Below, piece by piece: positions 26,241 through 43,080 of a stretch of 64,000 nucleotides of DNA. The notes beneath the pieces were generated by a model. That model worked only from the letters and a program-made list of their open reading frames with translations, had not been told where the DNA came from and did not search any database. The stretch is taken from positions 1 to 64,000 of the forward strand of contig JAVLKG010000004.1 in the NCBI GenBank assembly GCA_032128875.1, given 5' to 3'. The stretch comes from Candidatus Melainabacteria bacterium 17Bon1m (lineage in GTDB: Bacteria; Cyanobacteriota; Vampirovibrionia; Obscuribacterales; Obscuribacteraceae). Position numbers and translations under genes: made by a program. How positions within the stretch are numbered: the first letter of the stretch is position 1; every line of letters starts with the position of its first letter.

Positions 26241-27542
26241 TGACTGGCCCGAGACATAGGTTACACATTGTTCCGGACACATAGGTTACACATTTGGGCC
26301 AAACGGGTTGTCGAGGGGCTGCAATGTTTTTTTCCTCTAAGTCAACGTAGCCAAGATCATACTGCATAAAACTGACCAGCCATACGCCGTCATCAACCTC
26401 TTTGACGCCTACAGCTTGTCCAGCAAGGCTTCTAGTTAGATTGATTTTCTTTCGGTAAAGGCAGAGGCGGCCGCAATTTGTGACGTTTACTGTTTTGTCG
26501 TGAAACGGATAGTCGGGTTCAGGAAGACCGTTGTAGACCCGCGTGGATGGCTGATAGATTTCCGCTGGAAACTTCATTTCGATCCCTGCGTGTGGACGTT
26601 CGTTGTTGAACTCATCAATGAAAAGGTCAAACGTTGTTTGCTGTTGAAAAATGTTTGCACCAGCGGGTCTTGTAGTTTCCTTCTTGAGCGTTAAGTGCAT
26701 GCGTTCATGTCGGCCGTTTTGCTGTGGATGTCCAGGTTTGATTCGCTCAATACTGATGCCGAGTCTAAGCCACCAAACAGATAGTTTTGATAAATTGAAC
26801 AATCCGTTTGGAGAAGCGAATGGAACGCCATTGTCTGATCGAATCGCAGTCGGCATGCCTCTTTCTTTGAACAGTCTTTCAAAGGCGGTTAATGCAAATT
26901 GTTCTTTAGTCGATTCTTGTGCTTCGCAAAGTAAGAGATATCGTGAGGCGTAATCCGTGACGGTGAGCGGATAACAGTATTGCTTGTTTCCTAGTTGGAA
27001 TTCACTTTTGTAGTCAGTGCACCAGAGATCATTTGGGCGAATGCCATCAGACAAGGGCGTGCCCTGTGCACGTTGTCTCCGCTTTCGTCCTTTTGAAACT
27101 AGATCATGTCTGTCAAGAACAGTATGAATAGTGCTGATGGCTGGAATTTTGATTTCGTGTGGAAGTGCGCGAAGAAGTTTCTCTCGAATCTTTCTTGCAC
27201 CCCAATTCGGTTTTTCCTTTTTTGCGGCAACAATTGCAGCCTCAACTTGAGGAGGCATCGCATTTGCGTATCGAACAGGTCTTCGGCTTCTATCGCTCAA
27301 TCCTTCGAAGCCGCATTCTTCGTAGCGCTCGACAATCTTGTAGCCGGTCTTGCGCGAAATTCCGAATTCACGGCACAAAGAACTCATGTCTTCGTCGTCC
27401 TTGTGGCGAATGACAAAGCGTATTCTTTCGTCCAAAACAGAACACTCCTTCCACGGCATCCACTCTCGCCTCCCGCTGGAAAGCGCAAAAGTGTATACCT
27501 TGTGTCCGGAACGTTCTGTAACCCATCTGTCAGGGCCAGACA
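26241..27542 (-). mobile_element. IS481-family insertion sequence
   Basis: Imperfect inverted repeats TGACTGGCCC...GGTTACA...TTCCGGACAC versus the reverse complement of 27490-27542; GT on both flanks. Confidence 0.88.
26286..27459 (-). CDS. IS481 transposase with a +1 slip near the C-terminus
   Basis: HTH (LCREFGISRKTGYK), WCTDYK / RSDNG / NGRHER DDE core; with A6 instead of A7 at 26327-26333 it ends EEKTLQPLDNPFGPNV* at 26286. Confidence 0.9.
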
Positions 27543-27600
27543 GTCTGAAAACCTAGCCGACAGCGGGATTTGAACCCGCGACCTACGGTTTACGAATCCG
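27543..27600 (-). repeat. att core: duplicated 3' half of tRNA-Thr plus flank
   Basis: GTCTGAAAACCTAGCCGACAG.GGGATTTGAACCC.CGACCTACGGTTTACGAA matches 39886-39939. Confidence 0.92.
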
Positions 27601-27815
27601 CTCACAGAGCCAGTTTTCCTCCTTTGAAGATGTTGCGCGGTTGTTGGTCGTGCTATACAATGCCTGATGAGGACTGCGTCTTCGCGTGTTGTGTTTGTTG
27701 ATCAAAGTTGATCGAAGTTTACGCGAATTGATGCTAAAAAGGCCTCCATTAGGCTTCCACAATTTTACACCAGACCTACGGTTAATCGCACCAAAGGTCG
27801 GAGAACCAACATCAA

Positions 27816-29021
27816 ATGAAAGCGGAGAAGGTCAATTTTAATAAGCGAAAGATAGAGTCCATGACTATTCCGGAAGGAGTGGCAAAGAAGGAGTTCTATG
27901 ATTCCATCCAACGGGGTCTCATTTTGAGATTGTCGAAGGGCGGCAGTAAGAGTTTTTACTTTAGAAAGACTGTCCAATACAAAATCGAGCGAGTTTTCCT
28001 CGGGCGCTTCCCTGAGATGAGTGTCGAGCAAGCCCGTGATGCCGCTGCTGCGATTTTGGCAGACGTGGGTAAGGGAATTAGCCCTCAAGCTGAAAAACTC
28101 GCCTCCAAGGACGAGCCAACCCTCGGAGAATTGTTCGAGAACTATCTTGAAGGTCACGCCCGCATACGCTGCGTTCGAGTGGCTGATATGGAGAAGGATT
28201 TCGTCCGATATGTTACTGATTGGCGTGACCGTAAATGGTCATCAATAAAGAGAGCTGATGTTCAAAACAGAGTCAATCATGTACGACAAAACAATGGACC
28301 TGCCGCAGCTAATCACATCATCATTTTAATGAAAGCAATGACGAGTTGGAATATTCGGAATGGATATATCGAAGGCGATAATCCCTGGCTGCCCATTAAG
28401 CAGTTCAAGATTCAATCCCGAGAGCGATTTCTCAGGCCGAACGAGATGGCAAATTTCTTTGCTGCTTTGAAAAAGGTCCCTGACGAAATGATGCGAGACT
28501 ACTTTGAGATTAGTCTCTATACCGGCGCTCGTAAATCAAACGTTCTTGCAATGCGCTGGGAAGATGTTGATCTGGAACTTGCAATCTGGCGAATTCCAAT
28601 GACTAAAAACAAGGAGTCGCATCTTGTTCCGCTTACCGGACCTGCTGTTGAAATTCTTCGCCGGCGCTCGGAATCCAGTAAGACTGGCTGGGTTTTTCCT
28701 GGTCGAATAAAGGACAGTCATCTCGTAGAACCTAAGAGAGTTTGGTACAAGCTGATCAAAGATGCTGGAGTAGAAGATCTCAGGGTTCATGATCTCCGTC
28801 GGACTCTGGCGAGCTACATGGCGATAACCAATCACAGCTTGCCGATCATTGCGAGAGCGCTTGGGCACAAGTCCACCCAAGCAACGCAAATCTATTCACG
28901 CTTGACGCAAGATCCCGTCAGAAACGCCATGGATTTGGCGATTGCGCAAATTCACCTCCTGGCAGAAAGCAAGGAAGAAGCAATTGCTGTAGATGCTGAA
29001 GTTAGCGATTCCTGTGCTTAG
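27816..29021 (+). CDS. Tyrosine integrase (P4-like, with arm-binding domain)
   Basis: TGAR, HDLRRT, LGH and TQIY catalytic motifs; N-terminal GLILRLSKGGSKSF...LGRFPEMSVEQAR. Confidence 0.95.
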   Translation: MKAEKVNFNKRKIESMTIPEGVAKKEFYDSIQRGLILRLSKGGSKSFYFRKTVQYKIERVFLGRFPEMSVEQARDAAAAILADVGKGISPQAEKLASKDEPTLGELFENYLEGHARIRCVRVADMEKDFVRYVTDWRDRKWSSIKRADVQNRVNHVRQNNGPAAANHIIILMKAMTSWNIRNGYIEGDNPWLPIKQFKIQSRERFLRPNEMANFFAALKKVPDEMMRDYFEISLYTGARKSNVLAMRWEDVDLELAIWRIPMTKNKESHLVPLTGPAVEILRRRSESSKTGWVFPGRIKDSHLVEPKRVWYKLIKDAGVEDLRVHDLRRTLASYMAITNHSLPIIARALGHKSTQATQIYSRLTQDPVRNAMDLAIAQIHLLAESKEEAIAVDAEVSDSCA

Positions 29022-29066
29022 CCTAGTACAATTGAGCTTACTGTCTCTTCGTATCAGACCGCACCA

Positions 29067-29861
29067 ATGGCAAAAATTCAAAACTCACCAGAGCTAAGCG
29101 AGATCAAGGAACTTGCGTTTGCAAGGGAGACGCGTAGATGCGACGTTGAGTTGATGCTGCTTGCGTTGGCGCAAATGGATGATTCAGTGGCGGCCGGTCT
29201 TTTGAGAGATAGTGGATTTGAACCCGCTGTCGCAAAAGAGCGGATCGATGCAATGATGTTGCAACGCCACGAGCCACCATACAGCAATGGTTACTTTATC
29301 CTTGGCACAGTTGCACGCAGAGTGGCTCATACTTTTCATTCAAAGTGCATAAATTCGGAGCACTTGTTGTTTGCGCTTCTTTGTAGACATCGAGACGGTG
29401 CATATAGTCTACTTGGAGAGCTTGGAGTTAACCGTGAGCGGCTTAGGAACAAAGTCATTGCGATTTTAGAAGAGCGTATGCATGAAGAAATCAGAGACCG
29501 TCTGATTGAAAAGCAAAACGACATCAGATTTGTTCTTGCCCAGTATGGTGCACAGAATGTACGAATTTGTGGATCCGGCGAAAGCGAGTCGGCCTCGGAA
29601 CCAGACGTTGATGTAATTATTGTCTTTGAAAGGCAAGGAAATGTGCCCCCGGTATTGGTATGTCATCGGAATAGTTATCTGCGAAGAATGAAGGGGCAAA
29701 ATAGTTGGGACCGTAGCGGTTATTTGTTGTGTAATTGCTTGCGCAAGGTCATAGGCTACCCGGTCAATGTGGCGTGGGAAAGCGCTGTGAAAAACTTCTA
29801 TCCAAAAACATACAAGCGAACGCTCGCGACGCACAATTGGAGTTCCGAGAATCCGTTCTAG
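29067..29861 (+). CDS. Clp N-terminal domain fused to a minimal nucleotidyltransferase-like domain
   Basis: ClpN motifs (ELMLLAL, INSEHLLFALL...LLGELGV), then YGAQNVRICGS...DVDVII. Confidence 0.65.
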   Translation: MAKIQNSPELSEIKELAFARETRRCDVELMLLALAQMDDSVAAGLLRDSGFEPAVAKERIDAMMLQRHEPPYSNGYFILGTVARRVAHTFHSKCINSEHLLFALLCRHRDGAYSLLGELGVNRERLRNKVIAILEERMHEEIRDRLIEKQNDIRFVLAQYGAQNVRICGSGESESASEPDVDVIIVFERQGNVPPVLVCHRNSYLRRMKGQNSWDRSGYLLCNCLRKVIGYPVNVAWESAVKNFYPKTYKRTLATHNWSSENPF

Positions 29862-29935
29862 AGATGGTTTGAAAAATTCTGAGGAATTCGTCCTAAAGTT
29901 TCAGTAGCAATGATTGTGTTCGAGCTTATGAGGAA

Positions 29936-30634
29936 TTGAGATCAATGACGAAAAATGTGGCGGCACCACGACGTATTTCAATGAAAAAGCTCCATGGCGA
30001 TCCAGATGCTTTGATAATGACGAGACTAAGCTGGGCTCTGAATGACATGAGCAAAGTCCAGTATTTGCATGAACTGAGGTCAGATAACACCCCGCTCTCC
30101 GAAAAGCAAAAGTCATTGAATTACTTCACAGGCAGTTATCTATCGATGCTTCTTATTTCTCATTTAGTCGAAGGCGTGACCATTTTAAACGACATACAAG
30201 ATTCGAAAACACTTCAGGAACTGATTGCGGGCAACAGCCATTTGGAAAAGTTATGGACTGGTGCAAAGCGACTACTTCCTAAGGGCGATTTGTCTACAAT
30301 TGTCAAGATTTATGCAAGGCTGCGCGGTAACATCGTCTTTCATTATTCAGAAGGTGCAGAGTTGAAGAAGGGTTTTGATAAAAGCCTAGAAGACCAACCG
30401 CATTGGGCCAGCGAATACTATACGGCAACAAGCGAAGAGCCAACTGCGTATTATAAATTCGGCGACGATTTATTGGATGCCTGTTTTCTTAGGGCCTATC
30501 AAGAAGATTATCCAGGCGAAACCTATCAACAGTTGGCTGAAAAGCTTGCGCTTCAGAGAGATGAGATCTTGAGCCTATTTTGTCAATTTGGCTGTGCACT
30601 CTCTGAGATTTATCTTTCTCATTTTGAATGTTAA
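29936..30634 (+). CDS. HEPN-like (AbiU2-type) protein
   Basis: Helical ORF with RGNIVFHY. Confidence 0.55.
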   Translation: MRSMTKNVAAPRRISMKKLHGDPDALIMTRLSWALNDMSKVQYLHELRSDNTPLSEKQKSLNYFTGSYLSMLLISHLVEGVTILNDIQDSKTLQELIAGNSHLEKLWTGAKRLLPKGDLSTIVKIYARLRGNIVFHYSEGAELKKGFDKSLEDQPHWASEYYTATSEEPTAYYKFGDDLLDACFLRAYQEDYPGETYQQLAEKLALQRDEILSLFCQFGCALSEIYLSHFEC

Positions 30635-30711
30635 AGCATTGATACGCATGCTACATGCAATGTCCAATTGGCTCCAGCAAAATGTATGCTGCGAGCGCTA
30701 AAGAGCAAAAC

Positions 30712-31800
30712 TCACAGAAACATTTCCTGCGGATCAAGTTGCCTGCTCAAGCTCAGGAGATACTTGGAGAAACTCTCCCGAACAATTTCCACCTCACCGC
30801 GCGAACATTGTGTGTGCAATTTCTCGCAAAACCTTCTATAGGATTCAAACGAGAGGAATTGCTCCAAATTAGTGCTGAGAAAGTCTGGAAACTCTGACGT
30901 AAGCGATTTCAGATAAAGGTCCCACTCCGTGTTGGAAGCTTCATAGAGTAAGTCAAAGCGATCATCATAAGTGCAGGCATCGACTGCTTTCCAAATTTCG
31001 CCCAGCTTCTCCTGTAAATCTTTGGCGATGTCTAATTCTACTTCGTAGTCGTTTGCAATGCTCACCAGAAGCATTGTAAAGAATCCGAGAGCTTCTTCTA
31101 AAGCACGTTCGTTAGTTAGTACTTTGTAAATGACCGTCTCTTCAAAAGTACATCTCTCATCTTGTTTGAAAAGAAGCAATAGGAGAGTATAAGTTTCCGC
31201 GATTCGTTCTTCCGAAAAGGAAGTCAAATAATAGTCGCGATTATCACCTGCTGCTTCAACAATCTGTTTCAAGATTGAGCGGCTACCCATCTGAATGCGT
31301 TGCTTGGTCTCATCTCCAAAGTTGAGATCGAGCATTCCCCATAGATCGAAAAAGAAGTCAGAACTCAACAGAAAAACGAAGTTGTCTGTCAAGGAGCCAT
31401 TGATTTTCAACGGTCTCTCTTTCCACGGCTTTCTATGTGTTAATTCCAGGCGAGTCCATATTCTATTGGAAATCTCTGCCTTCCATTCCGGTGGCAGTAT
31501 ATGGTGAAATCGCCCATCCCGCCCTCTGAGGTCTTCTATGCGATCAATGAAGGCGTCTCTGTGATTTTTGTGCAATTCCTTCATTGGTCCATTGGCTAGC
31601 TGTGATGAGACACGAGTGGAAAATGGTCCGACGTATGCGGCTTGAATGAAGATCCACAGATCCTCAGGATGATCTGATAATGCCGAAACCTTTTCAATCG
31701 ACCACTTATTCTTTTCATATTTACGGGAGTTGACGTCAGCTGTGATCGCTGTACGCCAGGCTTCTATCAAAGTATCTAGTTCTCTCTCTTCCATCATCAC
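30712..31800 (-). CDS. Hypothetical protein with DUF6869-like N-terminus
   Basis: HPEDLW...LANGPMKEL...FIDRIE. Confidence 0.55.
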   Translation of the reverse strand: MMMEERELDTLIEAWRTAITADVNSRKYEKNKWSIEKVSALSDHPEDLWIFIQAAYVGPFSTRVSSQLANGPMKELHKNHRDAFIDRIEDLRGRDGRFHHILPPEWKAEISNRIWTRLELTHRKPWKERPLKINGSLTDNFVFLLSSDFFFDLWGMLDLNFGDETKQRIQMGSRSILKQIVEAAGDNRDYYLTSFSEERIAETYTLLLLLFKQDERCTFEETVIYKVLTNERALEEALGFFTMLLVSIANDYEVELDIAKDLQEKLGEIWKAVDACTYDDRFDLLYEASNTEWDLYLKSLTSEFPDFLSTNLEQFLSFESYRRFCEKLHTQCSRGEVEIVRESFSKYLLSLSRQLDPQEMFL

Positions 31801-31858
31801 TTCCTGCGTAGCTGTCGCAAGCGCCGTCCAAAACCAATGCAGATAACCTCAGCTGTCT

Positions 31859-32734
31859 TTACCATTGAAGTGCCTCGGCGGTCGGCGCCATTTCTTTGAA
31901 TGTCGAGTCTCTAAAATCGTAGAGTAAGCGCGCCTTTTCTATTTCATACGGCGGTTCATTCTTCGAATTCGGAGTACATCTGAAAATTTGTCCCTCTCGC
32001 GCAAAGAGCAAATCACCGGATTTATCGACGTTTGCCCAATCGAAACGACCTAGAAAAGAGTCATCGCCCGTTTTGCTCTCGTGGAGATAGTAGTCTGTCG
32101 TAGTGGCACTTCCGCCGTTTTCAACGAAACCTAGAATGCGCATTTCCAATTCATAACGACCAAGAGATTCAATTGGTTTGCGGTAGATTTGCGGTGATGC
32201 GAACTTCTGGTACCCACTAGAAATGCCCTTATCCACAAGAGACCACCCATCTAATGTGAGCGCTTTGTGTTCGTGAAACTCTTCATCCTTTGATAAGGGA
32301 ACTACTCTGATATGTCCAGGCAAGGGATTTTTTGGTCCCAAAATCCAGGAATGATAGGAGATCTTTATCTGTGATTCAGATGCAAAGTAACCGCCGCCGT
32401 CAGAGCATCCGCAAACTCTCCACAAATTTATAGCGGTCAAGAATGGTGGCTTGCTAACAATGAGAAAAGAGCCCTTATTCTCGCTTTTGTACTGGTGCTT
32501 TTCACCTATGTAAATGAGCTTTTCCCCATTTGGAGAAAGTGCCGCCATGCGCTCATAAATACGTCCCTTAAGCCATTGACCGGGCTCAAAGGTATCATTC
32601 CAGGTATCCCATCTATAAATCTGAACTAGCTTTGATGGACCCCGCCTAAAAACAACACCCCATGGCCCCTCACTTGCGAGCAGCGCATACAGCCTTACAG
32701 ATGGTTGCGGGTTAGCGACTTTTGCGGCGCCCAT
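31859..32734 (-). CDS. Hypothetical protein, beta-rich
   Basis: RBS GAGGAGG; VFRRGPSK...GQWLKGRIYER...LSPNG. Confidence 0.75.
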   Translation of the reverse strand: MGAAKVANPQPSVRLYALLASEGPWGVVFRRGPSKLVQIYRWDTWNDTFEPGQWLKGRIYERMAALSPNGEKLIYIGEKHQYKSENKGSFLIVSKPPFLTAINLWRVCGCSDGGGYFASESQIKISYHSWILGPKNPLPGHIRVVPLSKDEEFHEHKALTLDGWSLVDKGISSGYQKFASPQIYRKPIESLGRYELEMRILGFVENGGSATTTDYYLHESKTGDDSFLGRFDWANVDKSGDLLFAREGQIFRCTPNSKNEPPYEIEKARLLYDFRDSTFKEMAPTAEALQW

Positions 32735-32811
32735 TTTTTCACCTCCTCACCTTCCAGCTTACAAGAGCCCTGGTCGAAACATCAGAATGGATTGAACTTA
32801 TCCGCGTTGCG

Positions 32812-33364
32812 GGTTGATTTCGGCAGAATTTAGGTTCACCATTGAGACAAGCATTCGTTAGTAGCAATCCAGATTCGTGCAGGTACATCAATGCGCCATA
32901 TTGAAGAACCGACAGGTGCGCAAAAATTGCCAATGGGCACCTGTAAAAAAGCAATTTTGGAGATCAAAAGTGGCTCGTGATGCTGATTCATGACATGATT
33001 TTGGAAGGGAATGCCTTTAAGCTGCCACTGGGCCCGATTGATTCGTATTCGGCGCCCCTCTCCTTTTTTTTGAGCACCCCTATTAAGAGCCATGGGCGCA
33101 CCGATACGAGAAATCGGCGCCTTTGGCCTTTATCCTGCCTCCGGACCTACGGGCAAAGGCAAAAATGGATAATTATGGGGTACCTGCTCAAATTTTCGCT
33201 CCGAAATCATATGAGAAATCCCCCGCCCCCATCTGCCGCTCTGCCCGAATACCGTCGAGCATGGGTCCCGGAGTGAAGGTTGCCGGAGGCATCCGAAGGA
33301 CTCGACCTTCGCTCTGGGTGTTCGGCGGTAGGCTGTTTGCCCGGCAGAATTAGCGGGGGCTACC
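32812..33364 (+). repeat. Dispersed non-coding element, copy B2 (oriT-like core plus 140 nt branched hairpin)
   Basis: GGTTGATTTC to TTATGGGG is 361 bp; TATCCTGCC at 33131; hairpin 33220-33359. Confidence 0.85.
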
Positions 33365-33429
33365 TTTCGGATTTTGCGCCTGAGTTATGATGCATTTGGT
33401 GGGAAGCAAGGCGATTGGCTTTAGTGAGT

Positions 33430-35667
33430 ATGTTTCTAAAATCGTTAGTTCTGTCGCTTCTTGTTGCGTCTGCCAGTACTTCTGCGAGCGCGACTGATGC
33501 GAGTAACCTGCCATCTGAGCAGGCGACAGATTCACGAATCAAAGCGACGGCAAGAAGTGTTAACGACCTTTCATTGCGAATTATGCAGAGGCTAGTTTCA
33601 GAGAAAACTCCGCGCACGATTGTAATCTCTCCAATTGGTTTGGCGAACTGCTTGAATGCTGTTGCTCTCGGTGCGGGAGGAGATACTCGGAGCGAACTGC
33701 GAAAGGTGTTTTTGAATTCAGAGCTAAATGAGCAAGACTTTGGAACGCTTCAAAAATTTGTTTTGACACCGACAAATGGTGTTGATGTCTCATCTGCAAG
33801 TGCCATGGTGACAGCGAGGGATGTAAAGCTTAAGCCATTGTTTCTAAAGAGCTTTGAAAGCAGTTATGGGGGAACAGCTATCTCCGCTTCAAGCGCCGAG
33901 AATATTAACCAGCGACTCAACGATTGGATTCGAGTCAAAGCTCACGGCATGTTCGATGGTGCCTATCCCCCTATGAAGCCTCACGAGATTAGACTTCTGA
34001 ATGCACTCTACTTTAATGGCAAATGGATTGACCAGTTTGAAGGTAAGGCAACGAAGATCGAGAAGTTTTTTGAGACGGAAAGCTCTCCAATCTCGGTTGA
34101 GATGATGCACAAATCGCTTGAAATGGCGATGTTCTATGGAGAATCCGATGGTAGCCAAATTGTGCGGATGCCGTATGGACCTCCGCACTCAAACCCATTA
34201 ATGCCATTTGCAATGTATGTGGTTCTGCCAAGAAAAGGGCAGTCGCCAGAACAGCTGCTAAGCATGATCTCAGTAGAAAAACTTGAGAGCCAAATCTCTT
34301 CAATGCGTCCACGTGTTGGCGAGCTTTCATTACCGCGTTTTTCACTGCTTGCGAAAAACTCATTTAAGGAACCATTGGCGCAACTTGGCATACGACAAGC
34401 CTTTTCCGCTCCTAAAGCAAACTTTTCTGAAATTACTGACAGTAAACCTCTGTGGCTAGGTGATCTAAACCAAAACATCAGCCTCCTAGTAAACGAACAA
34501 GGAACAGAAGCTGCTGTTTTAACAGATGCGGTCTATTTCCTCGGACCAAATCCATCAAAGCGCTTTGAAATGAATGTGAATCGACCGTTCGTTTTTTTCG
34601 TAAGGGATGATCGAAGTGGAACAATCGTACTGCTTGGAGTTGTACATAAACCACTGATGGAACGCGCTGTCACGGAAGCGGCAGAAACGGAGTTGTTGCG
34701 AAATCTAGATGAGGACGAATCGAAGTGGGCTGTTCTCACTGGTGACGAAAAAAAGGAAGCACACTGGAAACTTGAGAGAGAATTGCGTGGGGCTCGCGAT
34801 TATTTCGTTTCCAAAAGCGACTTTCGGCAAGCAATCCAAATATCTAATCGGTTGATGCACATAGAAAAGCCACATTGCTCTGCACTTTATCAACACGCAT
34901 TCATCCAACTTGCGCTTGGAAATACGGCTGCCGCTGAGTCCACATTTAAAGACATTTTGAAACTCTATGCAGAGGCAAAGGGTAGCTTCGAAAAGACGCG
35001 ACCAGAATGGCTTGAGGCATTTGATAAATACGATGCGATGCTATCGAGCAAGAATCCGAAGGACCCTGAGCGCGCCCCAGTGTTGGCAGCTAAGGAGAGC
35101 TTCTTGATTCAGGACGTAAAGGACGATGTGTTCGTGAAGGAAGGGGTTGTTGGTGCATGGAGGCGTGATCTCTCAACCATCGGAGTTCCAGATGAAGTCA
35201 GCAAAATTACTTTCGATCAATTCATTGAGCGTTTTGACAAGGACACTGCATTGCTTTCAAAAGACATTGTTTCTTTACGTCTGGCGCTGAAGGAAGATAA
35301 GAGCGCGCTTCAATGGAAACCTAGTATGTGTCAGGGCGATCGCATATCCCGTCTTGGGCAATCTCAATCCGCTTTGGCACATTTCTACAGTGAACATGGA
35401 AGTGCCCATACAGCAATTCAGTTGTTTGAACTTTGTGTAATCAATAACATTGAAGATGATTATGTTGAAGGTGTGGAACGCGATCTATCAGACTTGATTG
35501 AAATTCTGAATGCGAACGGCTTCAAAAGTGAAGCGAAGATGGTTTCGCAGCGCCAGTCCCAATTGATGCCAATTGTGCATGAGTACTTGGAACTTCATCT
35601 TAAATGGGAAGAGCTCAAAAAAGAAGAGCAAAGGCGATGGCATGAAACTCCGCACACCAGCAATTAG
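33430..35667 (+). CDS. Secreted serpin with C-terminal TPR-like extension
   Basis: Signal peptide; VISP, LLNALYFNGKW, VNEQGTEAA hinge, VNRPFVFFVRD; about 335 aa helical tail. Confidence 0.88.
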   Translation: MFLKSLVLSLLVASASTSASATDASNLPSEQATDSRIKATARSVNDLSLRIMQRLVSEKTPRTIVISPIGLANCLNAVALGAGGDTRSELRKVFLNSELNEQDFGTLQKFVLTPTNGVDVSSASAMVTARDVKLKPLFLKSFESSYGGTAISASSAENINQRLNDWIRVKAHGMFDGAYPPMKPHEIRLLNALYFNGKWIDQFEGKATKIEKFFETESSPISVEMMHKSLEMAMFYGESDGSQIVRMPYGPPHSNPLMPFAMYVVLPRKGQSPEQLLSMISVEKLESQISSMRPRVGELSLPRFSLLAKNSFKEPLAQLGIRQAFSAPKANFSEITDSKPLWLGDLNQNISLLVNEQGTEAAVLTDAVYFLGPNPSKRFEMNVNRPFVFFVRDDRSGTIVLLGVVHKPLMERAVTEAAETELLRNLDEDESKWAVLTGDEKKEAHWKLERELRGARDYFVSKSDFRQAIQISNRLMHIEKPHCSALYQHAFIQLALGNTAAAESTFKDILKLYAEAKGSFEKTRPEWLEAFDKYDAMLSSKNPKDPERAPVLAAKESFLIQDVKDDVFVKEGVVGAWRRDLSTIGVPDEVSKITFDQFIERFDKDTALLSKDIVSLRLALKEDKSALQWKPSMCQGDRISRLGQSQSALAHFYSEHGSAHTAIQLFELCVINNIEDDYVEGVERDLSDLIEILNANGFKSEAKMVSQRQSQLMPIVHEYLELHLKWEELKKEEQRRWHETPHTSN

Positions 35668-36436
35668 TACGGCACTGATTCTCTTTTGCACATTTGCAAC
35701 TCCCAGTGTTGTGCTTGCAGGAGAAACTTCTTCAACTGGCAACCAGATTCATCGGTTGCCTCAAAAAAAGGATGGCTCTGAGATCGAATGGTACCAGGCG
35801 GTCCAGTCATTCCTGAAGTACAAGGATTGTTCCGTTGACGATTGGAAGATGTTTCTCTCTGACTTTGGATGTGAGATAAACGAATATAATCCTGAAAGGA
35901 GAGAACTTTACCTGGAACTCGCTCTAAGAATCCTTAGCAAGACAGGATTTCGTTTTGGCGCGCATAGCATGGAAAGCAGAATGGCTCACTTGAATTATGC
36001 CAGTGCGTTAGCTTTGTCAGAGCAATGCCGAAAGGCTTGGGATGAGTACGATGCAGTTGCTCCCGATCTCAAAGTGGAAAATGTAGATTATCTTGTTGCA
36101 TCACTGTGTTCATTAGGCCTTGCGTTTCGAGCAAATTGCCGAAGTAGTGACGTGATCTATGCATTCCGGCTTGGCGATGAGATCATTAGCAGCAGTAAGG
36201 TGACTGAGGATGTTCAAGCGAGGTTTTACAATTCCGCAAGCGAGGCGGTTTACGTCTCAGATCGTTGTAAGGACGATAACATCAAGCCTTTTTATAGGTA
36301 TGCAGAGAAAGCGATTCAACTCGATGAAAAGCTAGGCAAAGCATACTTCAATCAACTGAGAGAGGTCATACGGCTTAGGAACATTCAATTGCAAAGTGAC
36401 GAAGAACACCGAAAGTGGGCTGAAAAGCATAAGTAA
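35642..36436 (+). CDS. Secreted helical hypothetical protein
   Basis: Signal peptide MKLRTPAISTALILF...VLA; overlaps the serpin end. Confidence 0.65.
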   Translation: MKLRTPAISTALILFCTFATPSVVLAGETSSTGNQIHRLPQKKDGSEIEWYQAVQSFLKYKDCSVDDWKMFLSDFGCEINEYNPERRELYLELALRILSKTGFRFGAHSMESRMAHLNYASALALSEQCRKAWDEYDAVAPDLKVENVDYLVASLCSLGLAFRANCRSSDVIYAFRLGDEIISSSKVTEDVQARFYNSASEAVYVSDRCKDDNIKPFYRYAEKAIQLDEKLGKAYFNQLREVIRLRNIQLQSDEEHRKWAEKHK

Positions 36437-36510
36437 TGGAAAAGCTGAAACTCTTTCCGATCTCAGTGAGAGATACGACAATGAGGGAACGGAGACAATT
36501 GTAATTTCGT

Positions 36511-37209
36511 TCATTCGCCTTTGGGTGGTAGGGGTGGAGGTTCTTTTGGTGTAAGTCTAGCTACGTTTAAAAATTCCTTTTCGCAGGCTTGTAAAATTGG
36601 TTCAAACACTTCTGCATCGGTATGAGAGCCAGTATTAAAATCATAGACCAGCAGTCGTATCAAACTCTCAATTGTTGGGCGCGCGATTGGAAAGTGAACC
36701 CTCTCCATGTCCTTTGGCCGTGTTGCAGAACCGTTCTTCCAAACTCCGTTTACATGCAAATGTGACTGAGGATAATGTGTTTTTGGAACTCGATTCATTT
36801 CTATTCTGAAAAATTGATCTATTCCGAGATTATCGCTTTGGTAAACCATTCTGGAAGATTCAGTTTTTAGATAGCTGTGGTCTGATTTGTCCAGAAAAAG
36901 GCTGTATTGAAGGTCCAGAAAAAATCCATTCTTCAGTTTCAAGCAAGAGTAGATTTCGCTCCCTTCCGCGGCAGCTTCGAATTCACTACTGTTTCTACGA
37001 TGTGGAGCAATTACAAATGAATCAGTCCAATTGACAGAATGAATCGTCAGAAATGCCTTTGCATCCAAAACAGTATTGCCCAGCAAAAGCATGAGCAGTT
37101 CGTGAAAACTGTAAATGGCATTTTCCCCACCTTGGAGTGTCTCTCGGGTGAGCCTTATTGCTTGTGACTTAAATTCTTCAGGCTGCAACGCTTTCGGTGC
37201 AAATTCCAA
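36511..37209 (-). CDS. Hypothetical protein, candidate toxin (His-rich motif)
   Basis: HYPQSHLHV...HFPIARPTIE; overlaps the small upstream ORF. Confidence 0.6.
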   Translation of the reverse strand: MEFAPKALQPEEFKSQAIRLTRETLQGGENAIYSFHELLMLLLGNTVLDAKAFLTIHSVNWTDSFVIAPHRRNSSEFEAAAEGSEIYSCLKLKNGFFLDLQYSLFLDKSDHSYLKTESSRMVYQSDNLGIDQFFRIEMNRVPKTHYPQSHLHVNGVWKNGSATRPKDMERVHFPIARPTIESLIRLLVYDFNTGSHTDAEVFEPILQACEKEFLNVARLTPKEPPPLPPKGE

Positions 37210-37378
37210 TCAGCTTAAGAAGTCCGATAATGTCACTGTCCTTGCAGCGATCAACTTCGTTTTCTTTCAGCTTTTGAATGTAACTGTCAAAAGCTATGCC
37301 GTAACGCTTGTAGGCCAAAACAGTCACGATTTCAGTGACTTCTTCTTTTGTCCATTGATGTTTTGCGACTTCTGCCAT
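37178..37378 (-). CDS. Small protein, candidate antitoxin
   Basis: 66 aa (KRYGIAFDSYI); lies directly downstream of a consensus promoter. Confidence 0.55.
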   Translation of the reverse strand: MAEVAKHQWTKEEVTEIVTVLAYKRYGIAFDSYIQKLKENEVDRCKDSDIIGLLKLIGICTESVAA

Positions 37379-37402
37379 AGCTAGATCCTTCAAGTATTTC
37401 TC

Positions 37403-37431
37403 ATTGTACTTCGCCGCCTTTCCCTTTGCAA
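37403..37431 (-). promoter_or_regulatory. Sigma70-type promoter
   Basis: TTGCAA-17 nt-TACAAT on the minus strand. Confidence 0.65.
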
Positions 37432-37479
37432 CAGGATGTTAAGCGAACTGATTAAATCCAGCATTGCGCCTAGGAAAGC

Positions 37480-38550
37480 CTATGTGATTTCACTTGAATC
37501 CTGATCATTGCCCCAGAAAAGGAAATATTTCGGCTCGTATGATTCCTGAAAGAGCTTGTTGATACCATCTGCGAACGGTCCCGATGCTTGAAGTCGAGGG
37601 GTATTCCGCTTCCTCCAACTCGGGTTTTTTGCAAGTAGTTCTCTTGCCCAGTCGAACTCATTTGTTGGTGAGTACAGATAGCGGTTTGAATGATAAAGGT
37701 GCATCCGATTGAAGTAGTCCACACCCTCCTCTCTAAGGCGCATGCACTTTCCGTCGATTTTTTCAAATTCTCGAAAGAAAGATCTTTCGAGGAGGGATAA
37801 GTGAACATTCGGCGACAAGTTAATCATCAATTGAGATCCCTTGGAGAGAATGCCTTGCCCTCCATTCTCATCTTCTGCTCGCGGTACAAACAAGACAGGT
37901 GTGTCGCAGGTGATAAGTTTCCTGCTGTTGGTTGCACTGAACATCCAAACAAATTTATGGAGTTCAGGACCCGCAGCAATTCCTGAATTGAACGTAGACA
38001 AAACATGATGGCCTGCTTTAGCCTCTTTGCTGAGCTGTACATCAAAATCTTGTTCATCAGTGATCTCAACACCATTAGCTTGCAGCTCAGCAATGTACTG
38101 TGCTTTGAGCGATGCTCTAGCAAATGCGATTGATTCTTCCTTCTTGTCTGGAGTCCTTAGATACTGAACGGCTAGAAAGAAACCGAGTTTGATGCGCTCT
38201 TTTTTGTGTAACAGTCGCTCAGACGTGTATGGCAAAGTCTTTTTTCCAATAAATGCATTGACTTTACTTATGAGCATGTCGATAATCGGCTGTCCAAGGT
38301 CTTCTACTTCCTTAAAAGCTCTTTCGCTAATCTGATAGTTCTCTGGCTTACTGGGATCTCTGTCGACGCTTTTCATGTCGTAGAAATACTGAACACACGC
38401 AGTCTTGCTGATAGCGTTTTCAAAACTTCGATCATCCCATTTGTCAAAGACAAAAATTTTCCCCGGTTTGCTTGAAAATCTTTCCAAGCTTTTTTGAGGA
38501 ACAAAGTGTTGCTTTTTTGCTGTCTGTGGCAAAGGAGAATTTTGAAGCAT
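37480..38550 (-). CDS. DUF4238-domain protein
   Basis: KKQHFVPQ...F, FLAVQYLRTP, LITCDTPV. Confidence 0.8.
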   Translation of the reverse strand: MLQNSPLPQTAKKQHFVPQKSLERFSSKPGKIFVFDKWDDRSFENAISKTACVQYFYDMKSVDRDPSKPENYQISERAFKEVEDLGQPIIDMLISKVNAFIGKKTLPYTSERLLHKKERIKLGFFLAVQYLRTPDKKEESIAFARASLKAQYIAELQANGVEITDEQDFDVQLSKEAKAGHHVLSTFNSGIAAGPELHKFVWMFSATNSRKLITCDTPVLFVPRAEDENGGQGILSKGSQLMINLSPNVHLSLLERSFFREFEKIDGKCMRLREEGVDYFNRMHLYHSNRYLYSPTNEFDWARELLAKNPSWRKRNTPRLQASGPFADGINKLFQESYEPKYFLFWGNDQDSSEIT

Positions 38551-38556
38551 TTGAGA

Positions 38557-39612
38557 CTACATCGGTATGCCGTTAAGGTTATTGAAAAGGCTATAGTTTG
38601 ATGCTGTGTCGAGGACAAACCGCCCTTGAGCAAGCTGGGTCATTTTTCTCTCCATCGTGTCAAATTGATGCCCAATTCCAAACGATCCTCGGTTCCCTGT
38701 GCGAAATGGATATGGTCCGATGAGTACTTCATAACGGCAGTGTGCAAACAACGAAAGTTCAACCTTAATCTTATTCAGCTTCTCGAACACGCGCAAAAGA
38801 TGGAAGGGGATATAGTCCCTTCCTTCATATCCAGGCACTGTAAATCCATGTGGGGTAACAATGACCGGAGACTTTCCTTGAGCACGTATAGCGAAGTCCC
38901 TTATCTTGTCGAATGCTTCTTCATACAAAATGTCTCTAAATCCAGACTCTATCGCGCAGAAAGAAAAGTAATTGAAGGCGATTTTCGCTATTACTCTCTG
39001 CAAGTCGCGATCTATTCTTGAGTCGAACTCTATCTCAAGATTGCCATTGTAATTTAGTGTTTCACTATCACTTGCATTGAACTTCCTGTCGATGCCCCGC
39101 TTCCTAAGTTCACCTATGACTTCGCCGATTCCATCCTCTCCCTGTCCAAAGGCAGTAATTGAAAACTCACGTGAGCCAAGCCATTTGAACCTATTGCTAA
39201 AGCCTTTGTCATCCCTTAGTCCTTCAAGGAAAATTATTTGCTGCTTACCGTCCTTCCTTTCAAAGATAACCTGAGGAAGTAGTTGAACTTCGCCAGTGAC
39301 CGGATTCACTGTAGGAAAAACTCTTCCCAGCAGCGTTTGCACGCCAGTGAGTTTATTTGTCATTTTCATGCGCGTCTTACGAAGGCAAACTGATCGATCT
39401 TGTCGGACTCGAAACAGTGCTGCGATGAATCCTTCAATGCTGTCTTCCTTGAAGACAGTCTCCAACTTGCTGAAGATTCTGTTGCAGACATCGCAAACGT
39501 CTCTAAGAATCAATGACTCCCCCGAGAACGTTCCAAGAAACTGCGGGATTACATGCTCTCTGCCGTTAAAAGGGACATCTGTTTTTAAACAATATATGCA
39601 ACGCATAATCAA
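38557..39612 (-). CDS. HNH endonuclease-domain protein
   Basis: CIYC...EHVIPQFLG...VCDVCN; RVIAKIAFNY. Confidence 0.8.
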   Translation of the reverse strand: MIMRCIYCLKTDVPFNGREHVIPQFLGTFSGESLILRDVCDVCNRIFSKLETVFKEDSIEGFIAALFRVRQDRSVCLRKTRMKMTNKLTGVQTLLGRVFPTVNPVTGEVQLLPQVIFERKDGKQQIIFLEGLRDDKGFSNRFKWLGSREFSITAFGQGEDGIGEVIGELRKRGIDRKFNASDSETLNYNGNLEIEFDSRIDRDLQRVIAKIAFNYFSFCAIESGFRDILYEEAFDKIRDFAIRAQGKSPVIVTPHGFTVPGYEGRDYIPFHLLRVFEKLNKIKVELSLFAHCRYEVLIGPYPFRTGNRGSFGIGHQFDTMERKMTQLAQGRFVLDTASNYSLFNNLNGIPM

Positions 39613-39897
39613 GACTCGCTGCCAGAGTTGTAGCTTCTAAGCTATTTGGTATGCTCTCAAGATAACATTTCCGCATTTGCCACCGCCAGCGTGTCCAATT
39701 TTAGTGGTATCGCACTCGATATCACTTTTGCTGTGGATTGGATATCTGACGCGGATTTCTGGAAACGTATATATACGGAAGTTGGTGGCGTCACCTCTTC
39801 CAGTAGCTGTGCTTTCTAATTGATTAACCTTCACTCAATTTGACGTCAAAAAGGCCTCCATTAGGCCTCCGTGAATAAGAGCAAAGTCTGAAAACCT

Positions 39898-39969
<72 letters not shown>

Positions 39970-40069
39970 ACAGGCTATTCATTATATATGTATGTCCGCA
40001 GAACGAGAACTGACGGCAGCCGGATTTGTAACGCCCGGTTGGCCTGGAAAGCGGGCGCATTGCGGGTGC

Positions 40070-40940
40070 CTTAGACAGAAATATAACTAGAGATTGTCTT
40101 CTGCAAACTGTTTTGATCTCTTGGTAACCGGGTATAAAGTCTAAGCATAATAAGGTTGGAATTTACCGCGAGCGTCAGCAAGTGGTAACCGACCGCCTCA
40201 AATCCAGAAAGCTGGGGCCGGACTGCGAAGGCTTGCTGATGGGACGAGGGAGCAGATGTAGCGTTTAGTCGTTGCGTCGAGCTCTTGTATCCGTGGCAAA
40301 AAGCAGCGATGCGGATTGAGAACGAAGTATATGCAATTGATATTGCGTGTATCTCTTTCTTGTCTTGCGCGTCCGACGGGGCTTTGAATCCCCTGATAAC
40401 ATCAGGGTTTTCAGAACCTGTGCAGCACTCCAGCTCTTGAATTGGCCGAGCGCACTTCCTAGTCAAGTGCGTGTCCTTCGGCTGGCCATCAGCATCCTAC
40501 GTGTCTATGCGTAGGATGCTTTGTGGTGTATATAATTTATCGGCAATGCATATACAATCGCTAGATCCGCGTGTTGAGCCAGTTTTCATGGCTTGTTCAA
40601 ACGATCGGATCGATCATGTGATCGCAGTTTTTCAATACCAGCTTAGCGCTGCGCCTTCGGAAAACCGCATGATTAAAAGAAAAACGGGGTACTTCACACC
40701 GTTGGATGTGCTTGGTATATTGAAAGAGTAAACGGTGAGCGGTTAAGCGAAGTAACCGCTTTGAGCCGAGGGACACTACGGAAACGGCAGATCGGCGCCG
40801 ATCGGAAACGACAGTAGGTGGTTCGCCCCGAGTGAAGGACTGACTGAATCTCGAGGAAATACTGAGCCCACAGCAATGGGCAGTCAGGCAGTAGCTTAAA
40901 CATCGCAGCGGAGCAATCCTTGCGATGTTTTTGTTTTTGC
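40070..40940 (+). ncRNA. Large highly structured ncRNA candidate (GOLLD/ROOL-like size and context)
   Basis: No credible ORF; more than 12 helices with G-U pairs and GAAA/GCAA loops; ends in a hairpin plus U-tract; boundaries approximate. Confidence 0.65.
40898..40938 (+). terminator. Intrinsic terminator-like hairpin
   Basis: AAACATCGCA...TGCGATGTTT followed by TTGTTTTT. Confidence 0.6.
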
Positions 40941-40983
40941 AGGTTTTTCGAAAAGGTTGTGTGTAACACGCCCAAAGAAACAC

Positions 40984-41011
40984 GGTCGACGCATGGCGTC
41001 GACCCTACAAT
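40984..41011. repeat. GTAG-type REP palindrome
   Basis: GGTCGACGCATGGCGTCGACCCTACA; related copies at about 42025, 44257 and 63338. Confidence 0.75.
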
Positions 41012-41546
41012 AGAGACGTGCAAACCTCGCAGCGCCACTGAATATGGTGGCACGGTGAAAACACGTCAAAAAATGACCGGCATATACTTTGGCCGCATCA
41101 AGGCTTGTCGAATATTCGTATATATCTAGATTCGAACTTGTGAATGTTCAAACTTTTCAAAGTTCAAATTTTCCACAAGTTCTATAGATAAACAGTCGAA
41201 TTCTTTAGACTTTTGCTATCTTGAGCGAGCCTGAAAGTGGCTGCCAGTCAAAGACTTAGTTAATTTCATTAATACGAATGAAAAATCCAAACATATTTAC
41301 TCTTATGCCATCAAGGCATCTTTTGATTTCTGATCTTTTATAGATCGAGTATATGTTCGGATCCAGCCAATGTCAAGGAAATCAGACGCCGCGAAAACGC
41401 ATCGTTTCAATGTGTTTTTCGCAGTCAAATCTCATGCACGCGAGCCGGTTTCCTAGTACTTTTTCTCTGTGCACACACTACGTGTGAATTTTTCCAGGAC
41501 TCAGTTGCTGCGCGTATCTGAGTGATATTTGTTGGGAGTGCAAAGC

Positions 41547-42017
41547 ATGAACGTTACTTTGAAAGTGAAGCGTCTTCCTCACTGCAAAAATTTGCCCGCC
41601 TACGCGACAAGCGGTTCTGCTGGTATGGATTTGACTGCGGCCATCGAACAACCGGTAACAGTCGAGCCCAACAAGCGCGCGCAAATTCCAACTGGCATTC
41701 AAGTCGAGATTCCCGAAGGTTTTGAAGGGCAAGTGCGTCCCCGCTCCGGATTGGCTCACAAAGCCGGTATCAGCCTGACCAATTGTGTCGGAACCATCGA
41801 CAGCGATTATCGCGGCGAAGTCTGCGTGCTCATCATCAATCATGGCGAGCAAGCTTACACTTTCCAGCCCGGTGAAAAGATCGCGCAATTGCTCATCACG
41901 CCTGTTCCGCGCGTTGAGATTGTGGAAGTGGAAGAGCTTGCCGCGAGCCACGAACGCGGTGAGGGTGGCTTCGGATCTACGGGAAAGTTGATTCAAGCCG
42001 CAGGAGCTAGGGCTTAG
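41547..42017 (+). CDS. dut: dUTPase
   Basis: GSAGMDL, QVRPRSG, GTIDSDYRGE, RGEGGFGSTG. Confidence 0.97.
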   Translation: MNVTLKVKRLPHCKNLPAYATSGSAGMDLTAAIEQPVTVEPNKRAQIPTGIQVEIPEGFEGQVRPRSGLAHKAGISLTNCVGTIDSDYRGEVCVLIINHGEQAYTFQPGEKIAQLLITPVPRVEIVEVEELAASHERGEGGFGSTGKLIQAAGARA

Positions 42018-42228
42018 ATACCGGGCGACGCATGGCGTCGACGCATCAACTCAATCAAGACGTCGCTAGAGTCTAAAACAGCGCCTGCTGACACTGAAGA
42101 ATTGAACGTAACAAAGGGCTCGGGATAACCGAGTCCTTACGTTATATGGGGGATCTTGAAGGCTCTGGCCAGGTAAAATACCCCTTAACTCGTGTTTATT
42201 TCCTCCCGAAATGCCTGTATTTGGAGGC

Positions 42229-43080
42229 ATGGTGACTTCATCAGCCACATCAAAACCCATTAAAGTCGCGGTAGCCGGCATCAGCGGGCGCATGGGAAAA
42301 GCCTTTGTTCAGGCGTTTTTCAATGATCCCGTCATCAAAATCGTTGGAGCCTGGGGGCGCGAAAACGCCGAATATGTCGGACTTGACATAGGACAGGTCG
42401 CGGAAGTAGCCGGAGGGGCACGGACTGGTATACTTGTCAGCAGTGGATTTATCGAGTGTACAGCCGCCTGCTCGCCAGATGTCATTCTGGACGTAACCCA
42501 GGCGGAAGCAGCCTGGAGGACGGCAACATCCGCCATCGGCAAAGGCATTCGCCCTGTCATCGGTACTTCCGGACTGAGCCAAACGCATCTCAAGGAGCTT
42601 GCTAGCCTGGCTGAGAAGAACAGTGTTGGAGCAATGGTAGTGCCGAATTTTTCAGTCGGTGCTGTTTTGATGATGGAATTTGCGCGTCAGGCAGGGCGTT
42701 TCATTCCCAACGTTGAAATCGTCGAAATGCATCACACTCAGAAGATCGACGCTCCATCGGGCACAGCGATGCACACAGCTAATAAGCTCGCCGACAGTCG
42801 CAGTCATTACAACGCCAAGCGCGTGGAAGAGAAGGAGTTGATGCCGAGCGCTAGAGGCGCCGTTCATGCAAGCGGTGTGCGAGTGCATTCGCTGCGTTTG
42901 CCGGGCATGATCTCGCACCAGGAGGTTTTATTCGGATCGGAGGGAGAGTTGCTCTCAATCCGGCATGACAGCTTTAATACCAAGTGTTTCATCGAGGGTG
43001 AACGCATGGCTATTCAGCATGTTATGACACAAAACAAGCTCGTTGTCGGGCTTGATCAGATTTTATTTGGAAACGCATAG
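42229..43080 (+). CDS. dapB: 4-hydroxy-tetrahydrodipicolinate reductase
   Basis: GISGRMG, VIGTSG, EMHHTQKIDAPSGTA. Confidence 0.96.
   Translation: MVTSSATSKPIKVAVAGISGRMGKAFVQAFFNDPVIKIVGAWGRENAEYVGLDIGQVAEVAGGARTGILVSSGFIECTAACSPDVILDVTQAEAAWRTATSAIGKGIRPVIGTSGLSQTHLKELASLAEKNSVGAMVVPNFSVGAVLMMEFARQAGRFIPNVEIVEMHHTQKIDAPSGTAMHTANKLADSRSHYNAKRVEEKELMPSARGAVHASGVRVHSLRLPGMISHQEVLFGSEGELLSIRHDSFNTKCFIEGERMAIQHVMTQNKLVVGLDQILFGNA

Follow-up and report, generated by a model that had tools for sequence, protein, structure and literature searches.

The first 64,000 nucleotides (nt) of contig C4 (C4:1-64000) in the 7.55-Mb, 93% complete genome of Candidatus Melainabacteria bacterium 17Bon1m, hereafter called the window, contain an intergenic region between a tRNA-Thr gene and dut in which two non-coding elements follow one another on the plus strand. 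The downstream one is a copy of the known RNA family poplar-1 (RF03041), and the other, termed here the upstream element, is a single-copy candidate for a structured non-coding RNA (ncRNA). A preliminary description made from the sequence alone had proposed one RNA of ~870 nt, spanning 40070-40940, that might be related to GOLLD. The last 139 nt of that span proved to be poplar-1 and the ~180 nt before them its promoter region, leaving a unique part of ~385 nt. The features of the region are as follows.

39898-39969, minus strand: tRNA-Thr gene, anticodon CGT (ARAGORN; Rfam tRNA, 71.2 bits), whose 3′ end is the island integration site
39970-40119, no strand assigned: divergent spacer outside the conserved element, delimited from an alignment of 10 orthologues
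40145-40530, plus strand: upstream structured ncRNA candidate, ~385 nt, single-copy, with a 5′ hairpin, a multi-branch domain and 3′ hairpins
40550-40730, plus strand: control region and promoter of the poplar-1 copy in the window, with shared boxes at 40550-40563 and 40574-40602
40737-40761, plus strand: 5′ hairpin of the poplar-1 transcript, preceding the Rfam model
40760-40898, plus strand: poplar-1 core (RF03041), model positions 1-141, E 5.2e-30, score 134.7 bits (cut-off 110.5)
40898-40938, plus strand: intrinsic terminator as read from the sequence, stem 40898-40907/40921-40930, T run to 40938

The poplar-1 gene and its paralogues

A scan of the whole window against Rfam at gathering thresholds, a check that the preliminary description had itself suggested, gave two matches, the tRNA and poplar-1. 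The poplar-1 match covers the full model (1-141 of 141) and is followed by a terminator, as are the other seven copies in the genome, with the difference that the family accounts for only 139 of the 870 nt originally delimited. The family was reportedly described from metagenomes, in the supplement of a 2017 study by Weinberg and colleagues. Two non-canonical pairs are flagged in the alignment to the model. Among orthologues the poplar-1 helices undergo compensatory exchange (A-U to G-C in three sequences, G-C to A-U in five), and among paralogues the stem sequences differ while the alignment stays in register. Several of the helices proposed at the outset belong to this gene: the hairpin GAGCGGTTA/TAACCGCTT (40737-40761) is kept with differing sequence in all eight paralogues, and GCCCA/TGGGC lies within the Rfam model. 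The arms CTGACTG/CAGTCAG are unpaired in the Rfam consensus; both are invariant and could form a pseudoknot. The two CG-GAAA-CG motifs, taken earlier for GNRA hairpin loops, are strands of internal loops in the Rfam consensus. The terminator-like end was correctly recognized, in that its stem is kept with compensatory change in orthologues, whose conservation stops there, and homologous terminators lie 3′ of all eight paralogues.

Poplar-1 occurs at eight places in the genome, and the window copy is the lowest-scoring of them. Within the intergenic region, only 40758-40946 (poplar-1 plus terminator) is repeated elsewhere in the genome; 40070-40757 is unique. The window copy alone is preceded by the upstream element, the other seven copies standing without it, and Rfam searches of these seven paralogue loci returned poplar-1 only.

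Promoters were compared among the eight genome copies and then among 29 distinct copies from several genomes (28 and that of the window), aligned with their flanks. All aligned copies have a -35/-10 pair, a 5′ hairpin before the Rfam model and a terminator, and they have in common upstream boxes that reach ~210-240 nt upstream. Most combine TTGAAC or TTGATC with a 16-17-nt spacer and TAAACT. The promoter of the window copy has diverged: a promoter scan places its -35 hexamer TTCACA at 40693-40698 and its -10 hexamer TATATT, preceded by TG, at 40716-40721, separated by a 17-nt spacer (10 of 12 matches), and among the window orthologues these hexamers are invariant and the spacer is variable. 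A further helix of the preliminary description, TTCAATACCA/TGGTATATTGAA, is not upheld; its 3′ arm is the -10 region of this promoter. The control region 40550-40730 as a whole carries no conserved-structure signal (z of 0.03 and 1.58 over 40558-40737 in the column-shuffle test used below). Poplar-1 is a self-contained small RNA (sRNA) gene with its own sigma-70-like promoter. Because the eight paralogues share their upstream control region, a single DNA-binding factor probably regulates them together, and the RNAs probably act in trans through their invariant loops.

Evidence from RNA libraries consists of assembled contigs, which carry neither strand, nor ends, nor proof of RNA origin. One library, X17, is an independent wastewater metatranscriptome. 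It has a contig over 40741-40884, identical in sequence to the window, with a depth of 629; related copies reach 781-1412, and adaptor letters directly precede position 40741. In two other libraries, X2 and X4, a 41-nt stretch from the invariant poplar-1 core is found at a depth of 1714-2041, compared with 25-33 for the flanking contig. These contig depths and the start at 40741 indicate an abundant product of ~150-200 nt, not 870 nt, and poplar-1 is a discrete, very abundant small RNA. The 5′ end at 40741 lies ~12 nt downstream of the start predicted from the -10 hexamer, which would reflect processing or start-site choice.

Qrr of Vibrio and RsmX/Y/Z of Pseudomonas are regulatory sRNA families with several gene copies whose upstream control sequences are shared. 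As a working analogy, confined to gene organization and to poplar-1, the copies described here resemble these systems in being paralogous sRNA genes with their own promoters, upstream boxes, invariant loops and a terminator. They differ in that searches of the 93%-complete genome found no homologue of CsrA or Hfq and in that the poplar-1 promoter is sigma-70-like and not sigma-54-like. A reading of the poplar-1 GGA motifs as a CsrA sponge was rejected, as neither CsrA nor Hfq was found.

Poplar-1 was present in all genomes searched from two families of the Obscuribacterales (24 of 24 and 3 of 3). It was missing from all 13 genomes of six other families in the class and from all 150 genomes drawn across the phylum. 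Tandem arrangement is frequent, with copies spaced 0.5-2.3 kb apart (for example at C10:81793-84214, and also at loci of relatives); at C1:139142-142611, three copies are interleaved with paralogous genes of ~350 codons that have a hydrophobic N-terminus. A viral-classed contig of 2.6 kb (L093 98-129) carries the poplar-1 core motif. The term poplar-1 is absent from the main text of Weinberg et al. (2017; PMC5737381), to which the term search was confined. According to a preprint, poplar-1 is one of the RNAs for which the intracellular fraction of drinking-water metatranscriptomes is enriched. Literature searches for RF03041, or for Obscuribacter together with small RNA, found nothing, and no statement in print was found on the taxonomic range, copy number or promoter architecture of the family.

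An upstream element with a plus-strand structure signal

The preliminary description was right that the DNA diverging from tRNA-Thr(CGT) is helix-rich and non-coding; its starting point at 40070 was too early. In the alignment of 10 orthologues, the spacer is invariant over 39970-39998, which likely represents the tRNA-Thr promoter with a putative TATAAT on the minus strand at 39981-39986, and variable with insertions and deletions over 40032-40119. Owing to the variability of this second segment, the conserved element is placed as starting near 40120-40145.

A DNA search with 40000-40760 yielded near-full-length matches of 81-91% identity in nine of 12 other genomes of the genus; the three genomes that gave no match to the element have a completeness of 64-79%. 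Matches in other genera were limited to the final ~90 nt, which belong to the promoter region. A search of 104 genomes of the family produced the same picture, plus partial matches in one genome of a second genus, G015. Over 40120-40573, identity to the window is 80.8-91.2% in the nine genomes of the genus. A comparison with dut is limited to the four species with an alignable dut gene; in each of them the identity of 40120-40573 exceeds that of dut third codon positions (91.2 vs 78.5, 87.2 vs 60.9, 80.8 vs 66.0 and 80.8 vs 59.7). Further scans for orthologues added five metagenome loci and 10 genome-collection loci, all but one of them at least 99% identical to sequences already in the set; the exception is a partial sequence with 95.6% identity to G003.

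Substitutions in the upstream element are spread over the three codon positions without periodicity (36/34/42). Its longest recurrent frame has in-frame stops in eight of nine orthologues, several 1-nt insertions or deletions occur, and the frames differ by species. No conserved open reading frame (ORF) of at least 12 codons was found in 40120-40600; the sole frame of at least 12 codons that is conserved in at least nine species has 21 codons, falls within the invariant promoter region and undergoes radical changes in its variable half. Pfam searches of the element gave no match at E 0.1 or below.

Permissive Rfam scans of 39800-41600 and of 40135-40545 were run with all 4227 families of Rfam 15 at E up to 10, and beyond poplar-1 and the tRNA they gave hits at chance level only; the upstream element has no Rfam match. 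GOLLD and ROOL are often found near tRNAs and in phages or prophages, and the locus recalls them in having a long, many-helix non-coding stretch beside a tRNA gene; it departs from them in lying outside the island, in having a unique part of only ~385 nt and in being confined to two genera. The suggestion of a GOLLD-like RNA did not survive the all-family scans, which contained no GOLLD covariance-model match and none to any other large-RNA family. ROOL (RF03087) had no match anywhere in the genome at E up to 1, control genomes giving none either, and group-II-D1D4-1 (RF01998) gave no match. A pattern for the 5′ domain of the element was found in none of the viral contigs of the collection searched. 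Divergent housekeeping RNAs were considered and set aside, since RNase P RNA (C7:85766, 256 bits), 6S RNA (C7:122687, 48.4 bits) and transfer-messenger RNA (tmRNA; C1:953859, 119.5 bits) are all present elsewhere in the genome above their cut-offs. By sequence comparison, the upstream element is non-coding, under purifying selection and outside the described RNA families.

Folding of the ten genus sequences over 40145-40540 with RNAalifold gives a consensus of 118 pairs. Its 5′ end forms a nested hairpin; next comes a multi-branch domain with three hairpins, closed by the helix 40211-40217/40428-40434, and two further hairpins follow on the 3′ side. Three parts of this consensus are referred to below.

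40148-40228, plus strand: 5′ domain, in which 40155-40159/40189-40193 and 40163-40173/40178-40188 form a nested hairpin, with a conserved single-stranded run after it
40444-40483, plus strand: best-covarying hairpin, 40444-40450/40476-40483 enclosing 40451-40457/40465-40471
40485-40527, plus strand: 17-bp hairpin at the 3′ edge of the structure signal, followed by a short U run, at which the terminator scan calls no terminator

The strongest compensatory evidence comes from the hairpin at 40444-40483, in which A-U is replaced by U-A in three sequences and G-C by A-U in two. Within it, the helix GCGCACTT/AAGTGCGT (40450-40472), which the preliminary description had singled out, is upheld by pair 40452/40470, changed from G-C to A-U in two sequences, with a G-U intermediate among the 10 orthologues. 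The helix at 40491-40520 is likewise retained, pair 40498/40513 passing from U-A to C-G in four sequences; that at 40327-40352 persists through G-U transitions, and pair 40388/40410 is changed from A-U to G-C in three sequences. Three other helices put forward at that stage, CTTAGAC/GTCTAAG, TCAGCAAG/CTTGCTGA and GATCCG/CGGATC, were abandoned because they show uncompensated change on one strand or fall in variable or promoter DNA.

In a column-shuffle test with windows of 120 columns, all eight plus-strand windows across 40110-40617 have z scores of -2.1 to -6.3, and the minus strand gives -0.9 to +2.4, except at the palindromic hairpin 40485-40527. The coding sequence of dut, used as a control in five species, gave -0.57 to +0.64 in seven of seven windows over both strands; for the upstream element the same five species gave -2.2 to -8.3. 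Cells of the consensus structure comprise 949 Watson-Crick pairs, 206 G-U, 1 A-C and 22 others, in agreement with the original impression that G-U pairs favour the plus strand. Paired cells amount to 98.0% on the plus strand, as against 80.6% when the structure is mirrored to the minus strand. Variable columns make up 52 of 236 paired and 82 of 161 unpaired columns. Of the 13 predicted pairs in which both columns vary, five are fully compatible with double change, a property of 1.06% of 20206 background pairs of variable columns; for a shorter structure the figures are three of eight pairs and 1.55%. None of 500 shuffles reached the observed 17 double-change cells. The upstream element carries a conserved structure signal that is specific to the plus strand. 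Base pairing between the element and poplar-1 was also considered and rejected, as 14 of 200 shuffles did as well and the duplex predicted without restriction carries no meaning.

Range of the element and setting of the locus

A poplar-1 copy lies directly 3′ of the upstream element in 11 of 11 genomes that hold it, including G015, and the copies in this position form a distinct, low-scoring sub-lineage of 131-136 bits. A model of the 5′ domain, R1, scores 70-106 bits in its own genome, in nine of the 12 other same-genus genomes and in G015 (70.5 bits), and all its other matches among the 104 family genomes score 23 bits or less. Matches of R1 beyond the two genera (19-23 bits) were rejected; four were checked in other genera and none lies near poplar-1. 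In G015, the 5′ domain is followed ~620 nt further on by poplar-1 (135.8 bits); tRNA-Thr stands 1.6 kb upstream, with an ORF of 421 codons between it and the element. Identity to the window over 40120-40573 is only 48.8% in G015, the 5′ domain being the only part with conserved sequence there.

Two further observations concern G015. By eye, and as a reading of sequence, the closing helix 40211-40217/40428-40434 appears to be kept, with a U-A to C-G change and a bulge. On contig L066 (4560-5810), an ORF of 416 codons directly beside tRNA-Thr looks, again by eye, like a tyrosine recombinase, which would fit repeated use of tRNA-Thr as an integration site.

In the window, a 55-nt direct repeat (96.4% identity) made up of the 3′ part of tRNA-Thr and 13 further nt occurs at 27542-27596 and at 39885-39939, flanking a stretch of ~12.3 kb (27597-39884) to the left of tRNA-Thr. 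This stretch has the layout expected of a putative island integrated into the tRNA-Thr gene, and the plus-strand element lies outside it, on the chromosomal side of the attachment (att) site, as had been claimed. The distal repeat copy has the T-stem version of most orthologues, and the intact tRNA-Thr has a compensated variant. G+C content is 0.43-0.48 over 1-40000 and 0.49-0.55 over 42000-64000, and the stretch of low G+C exceeds the repeat-flanked island in length.

The orthologous block extends from 39883, just past tRNA-Thr, to the terminator (40936-40952) in nine of 12 same-genus genomes, and the DNA to the left of tRNA-Thr and to the right of ~40940 cannot be aligned between orthologues. 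To the right, the first plausible gene is dut (41529-42017, plus strand). A palindrome of ~30 nt of the repetitive extragenic palindromic (REP) type, at 40983-41012 (core ~40984-41004), has ~40 matches on many contigs of the genome, and RNA-library assembly contigs break at it. A replication origin (oriC) was considered and rejected: the window has 27 DnaA-box-like matches where 24.25 would be expected, only a single match falls in the region, and there is no GC-skew switch.

Transcripts and interpretation

Over the upstream element, X17 contains one contig, identical to the window, that covers 40223-40485 at a depth of 2.1, the poplar-1 part being ~300-fold deeper. Contigs of relatives cover 40116-40276 at depths of 6-10.5, and a lake RNA library (X18) has a contig identical to the window that spans 40668-40850, across the poplar-1 promoter. 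Most of 40945-42400 is uncovered in X17 and X18, as is 40486-40740 in X17, and these gaps were left out as evidence. Transcription of the upstream element is at most weakly indicated. In X4, a contig ends at 40498 with adaptor letters and eight unmatched letters, and depth there passes from 47.7 to 155; this break could be an RNA end inside the hairpin 40485-40527, or an artefact.

We think it probable that the region holds two linked plus-strand non-coding units, the poplar-1 gene and a structured RNA of ~385 nt with partial read-through from the second into the first. For the poplar-1 gene (~40730-40938), transcription would start from the sigma-70-type promoter at 40693-40721 and stop at the intrinsic terminator, giving the abundant RNA of ~200 nt. 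For the upstream RNA, our best guess is a weak promoter near 40110-40151, inferred from the block conserved in the genus:

40110-40151, plus strand: candidate promoter for the upstream element, with either TATAAA (40133-40138) or CATAAT (40146-40151)

The 3′ end of this RNA may be the hairpin at 40485-40527. Between 40150 and 40898 the terminator scan calls nothing strong, its only entry being a 5-bp site at 40611-40624, and for this reason partial read-through into poplar-1 is probable; the X18 contig across the poplar-1 promoter points the same way. Upstream transcription would then run in part into poplar-1, making a rare long isoform of ~790 nt beside the abundant short RNA.

A more ambitious proposal, which we offer tentatively and consider possible without expecting it, is that the element represents a new large structured RNA class specific to the Obscuribacteraceae, ~385 nt long with a dozen helices and a 5′ domain conserved across genera, that has been welded to a diverged poplar-1 paralogue. 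The locus would then be an ncRNA operon with two promoters and one terminator, in which the rare long isoform tethers the structured domain to the poplar-1 module. If so, the long isoform might act, for example, on the abundant poplar-1 sRNA pool or on its partner, by delivery, sequestration or sensing.

Several observations weigh against the two-unit interpretation. The structure tests draw on only 10 related sequences, all of them close, and 44 of 500 shuffles reach the observed seven double-change pairs. The covariation tests moreover lean towards the predicted structure, because RNAalifold, the program that selected it, rewards covariation. Poplar-1, a known structured RNA, has column-shuffle z scores of -0.39, -1.13 and 0.23, and the calibration of the test is uncertain because poplar-1 itself goes unflagged. 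Folding of the single sequence (-218.5 kcal/mol) gives z of -5.09 on the plus strand and -3.36 on the minus strand; the unconserved neighbour at 40945-41525 folds with z of -5.83, no worse than the candidate stretch, so the excess is unspecific and single-sequence z scores were dropped as evidence. The corresponding stretch of G015 folds with z of -1.70, and a model of 40380-40532, R2, finds nothing at the G015 locus (best 6.8 bits, E 0.15), which confines structure conservation beyond the genus to the 5′ domain. The promoter scan lists no promoter at 40110-40151. RNA-library support over 40145-40530 consists only of contigs without strand or ends. X2 and X4 hold contigs of 147 kb; these libraries thus cover the genome at large and may contain DNA, and in X4 the contig with the element is ~1.9 times as deep as its flank (47.7 vs 25.3). 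With one depth per contig and genome-wide cover, depth ratios from X2 and X4 are hints only.

Among the competing explanations, a single giant RNA of ~800-870 nt (~40145-40938), with poplar-1 as its 3′ domain, would account for the invariable linkage and conserved distance between element and poplar-1 in 11 of 11 genomes, for the lack of a strong terminator between them and for the X18 contig that crosses the poplar-1 promoter (40668-40850). We nevertheless regard it as unlikely, as poplar-1 occurs seven more times in the genome without the element, the -35/-10 pair and upstream boxes are conserved before every poplar-1 copy including that of the window, the intervening 40558-40737 has no conserved-structure signal, and in X17 poplar-1 is ~300-fold deeper, with contigs that begin at 40741 after adaptor letters.

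It is likewise unlikely, in our view, that the 5′ domain (~40148-40228) alone is functional, as a small RNA or leader, with the other 300 nt a spacer under weaker or lineage-specific constraint. This explanation draws on the comparison with G015, where only the 5′ domain is conserved in sequence (70.5 bits), identity over 40120-40573 falls to 48.8% and R2, built on the 3′ part, finds nothing. Within the genus, however, the 3′ 300 nt are equally conserved, and they hold the strongest structure z scores and all of the compensatory pairs; the length from the 5′ domain to poplar-1 is also kept (607 vs 619 nt).

An element that acts as DNA, with no RNA made, might regulate the tRNA-Thr promoter or the poplar-1 promoter or contribute to chromosome organization. 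In its favour, the neighbouring 40550-40730 does show conservation as a control sequence at the DNA level, and the RNA support for the element, being contigs, is no proof of transcription. The strand asymmetry, with 206 G-U against 1 A-C cells, is unexpected for a DNA site, 385 nt far exceeds the length that known promoter-proximal control regions require, and there is neither a DnaA-box cluster nor a GC-skew switch, all of which makes this explanation quite improbable. A protein-coding gene, small-protein gene or pseudogene is scarcely credible: frames of 86-131 codons are open in the window sequence alone, and in orthologues they are broken by stops or shifted, with no codon periodicity, no Pfam match at E 0.1 or below and, as the only conserved frame of at least 12 codons, the 21 codons in the promoter region.

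On the two-unit interpretation, what is already known at this locus is the poplar-1 family (RF03041), and what is new is a candidate structured RNA of ~385 nt with a narrow range. Poplar-1 is now placed in a lineage, two families of the Obscuribacterales, and the promoter architecture shared by its copies offers a handle for finding their regulator. Bacterial ncRNAs longer than ~300 nt with conserved structure are few, and several of them have unusual biochemistry; the upstream element adds a large-ncRNA candidate from the Melainabacteria, a little-studied and mostly uncultured group.

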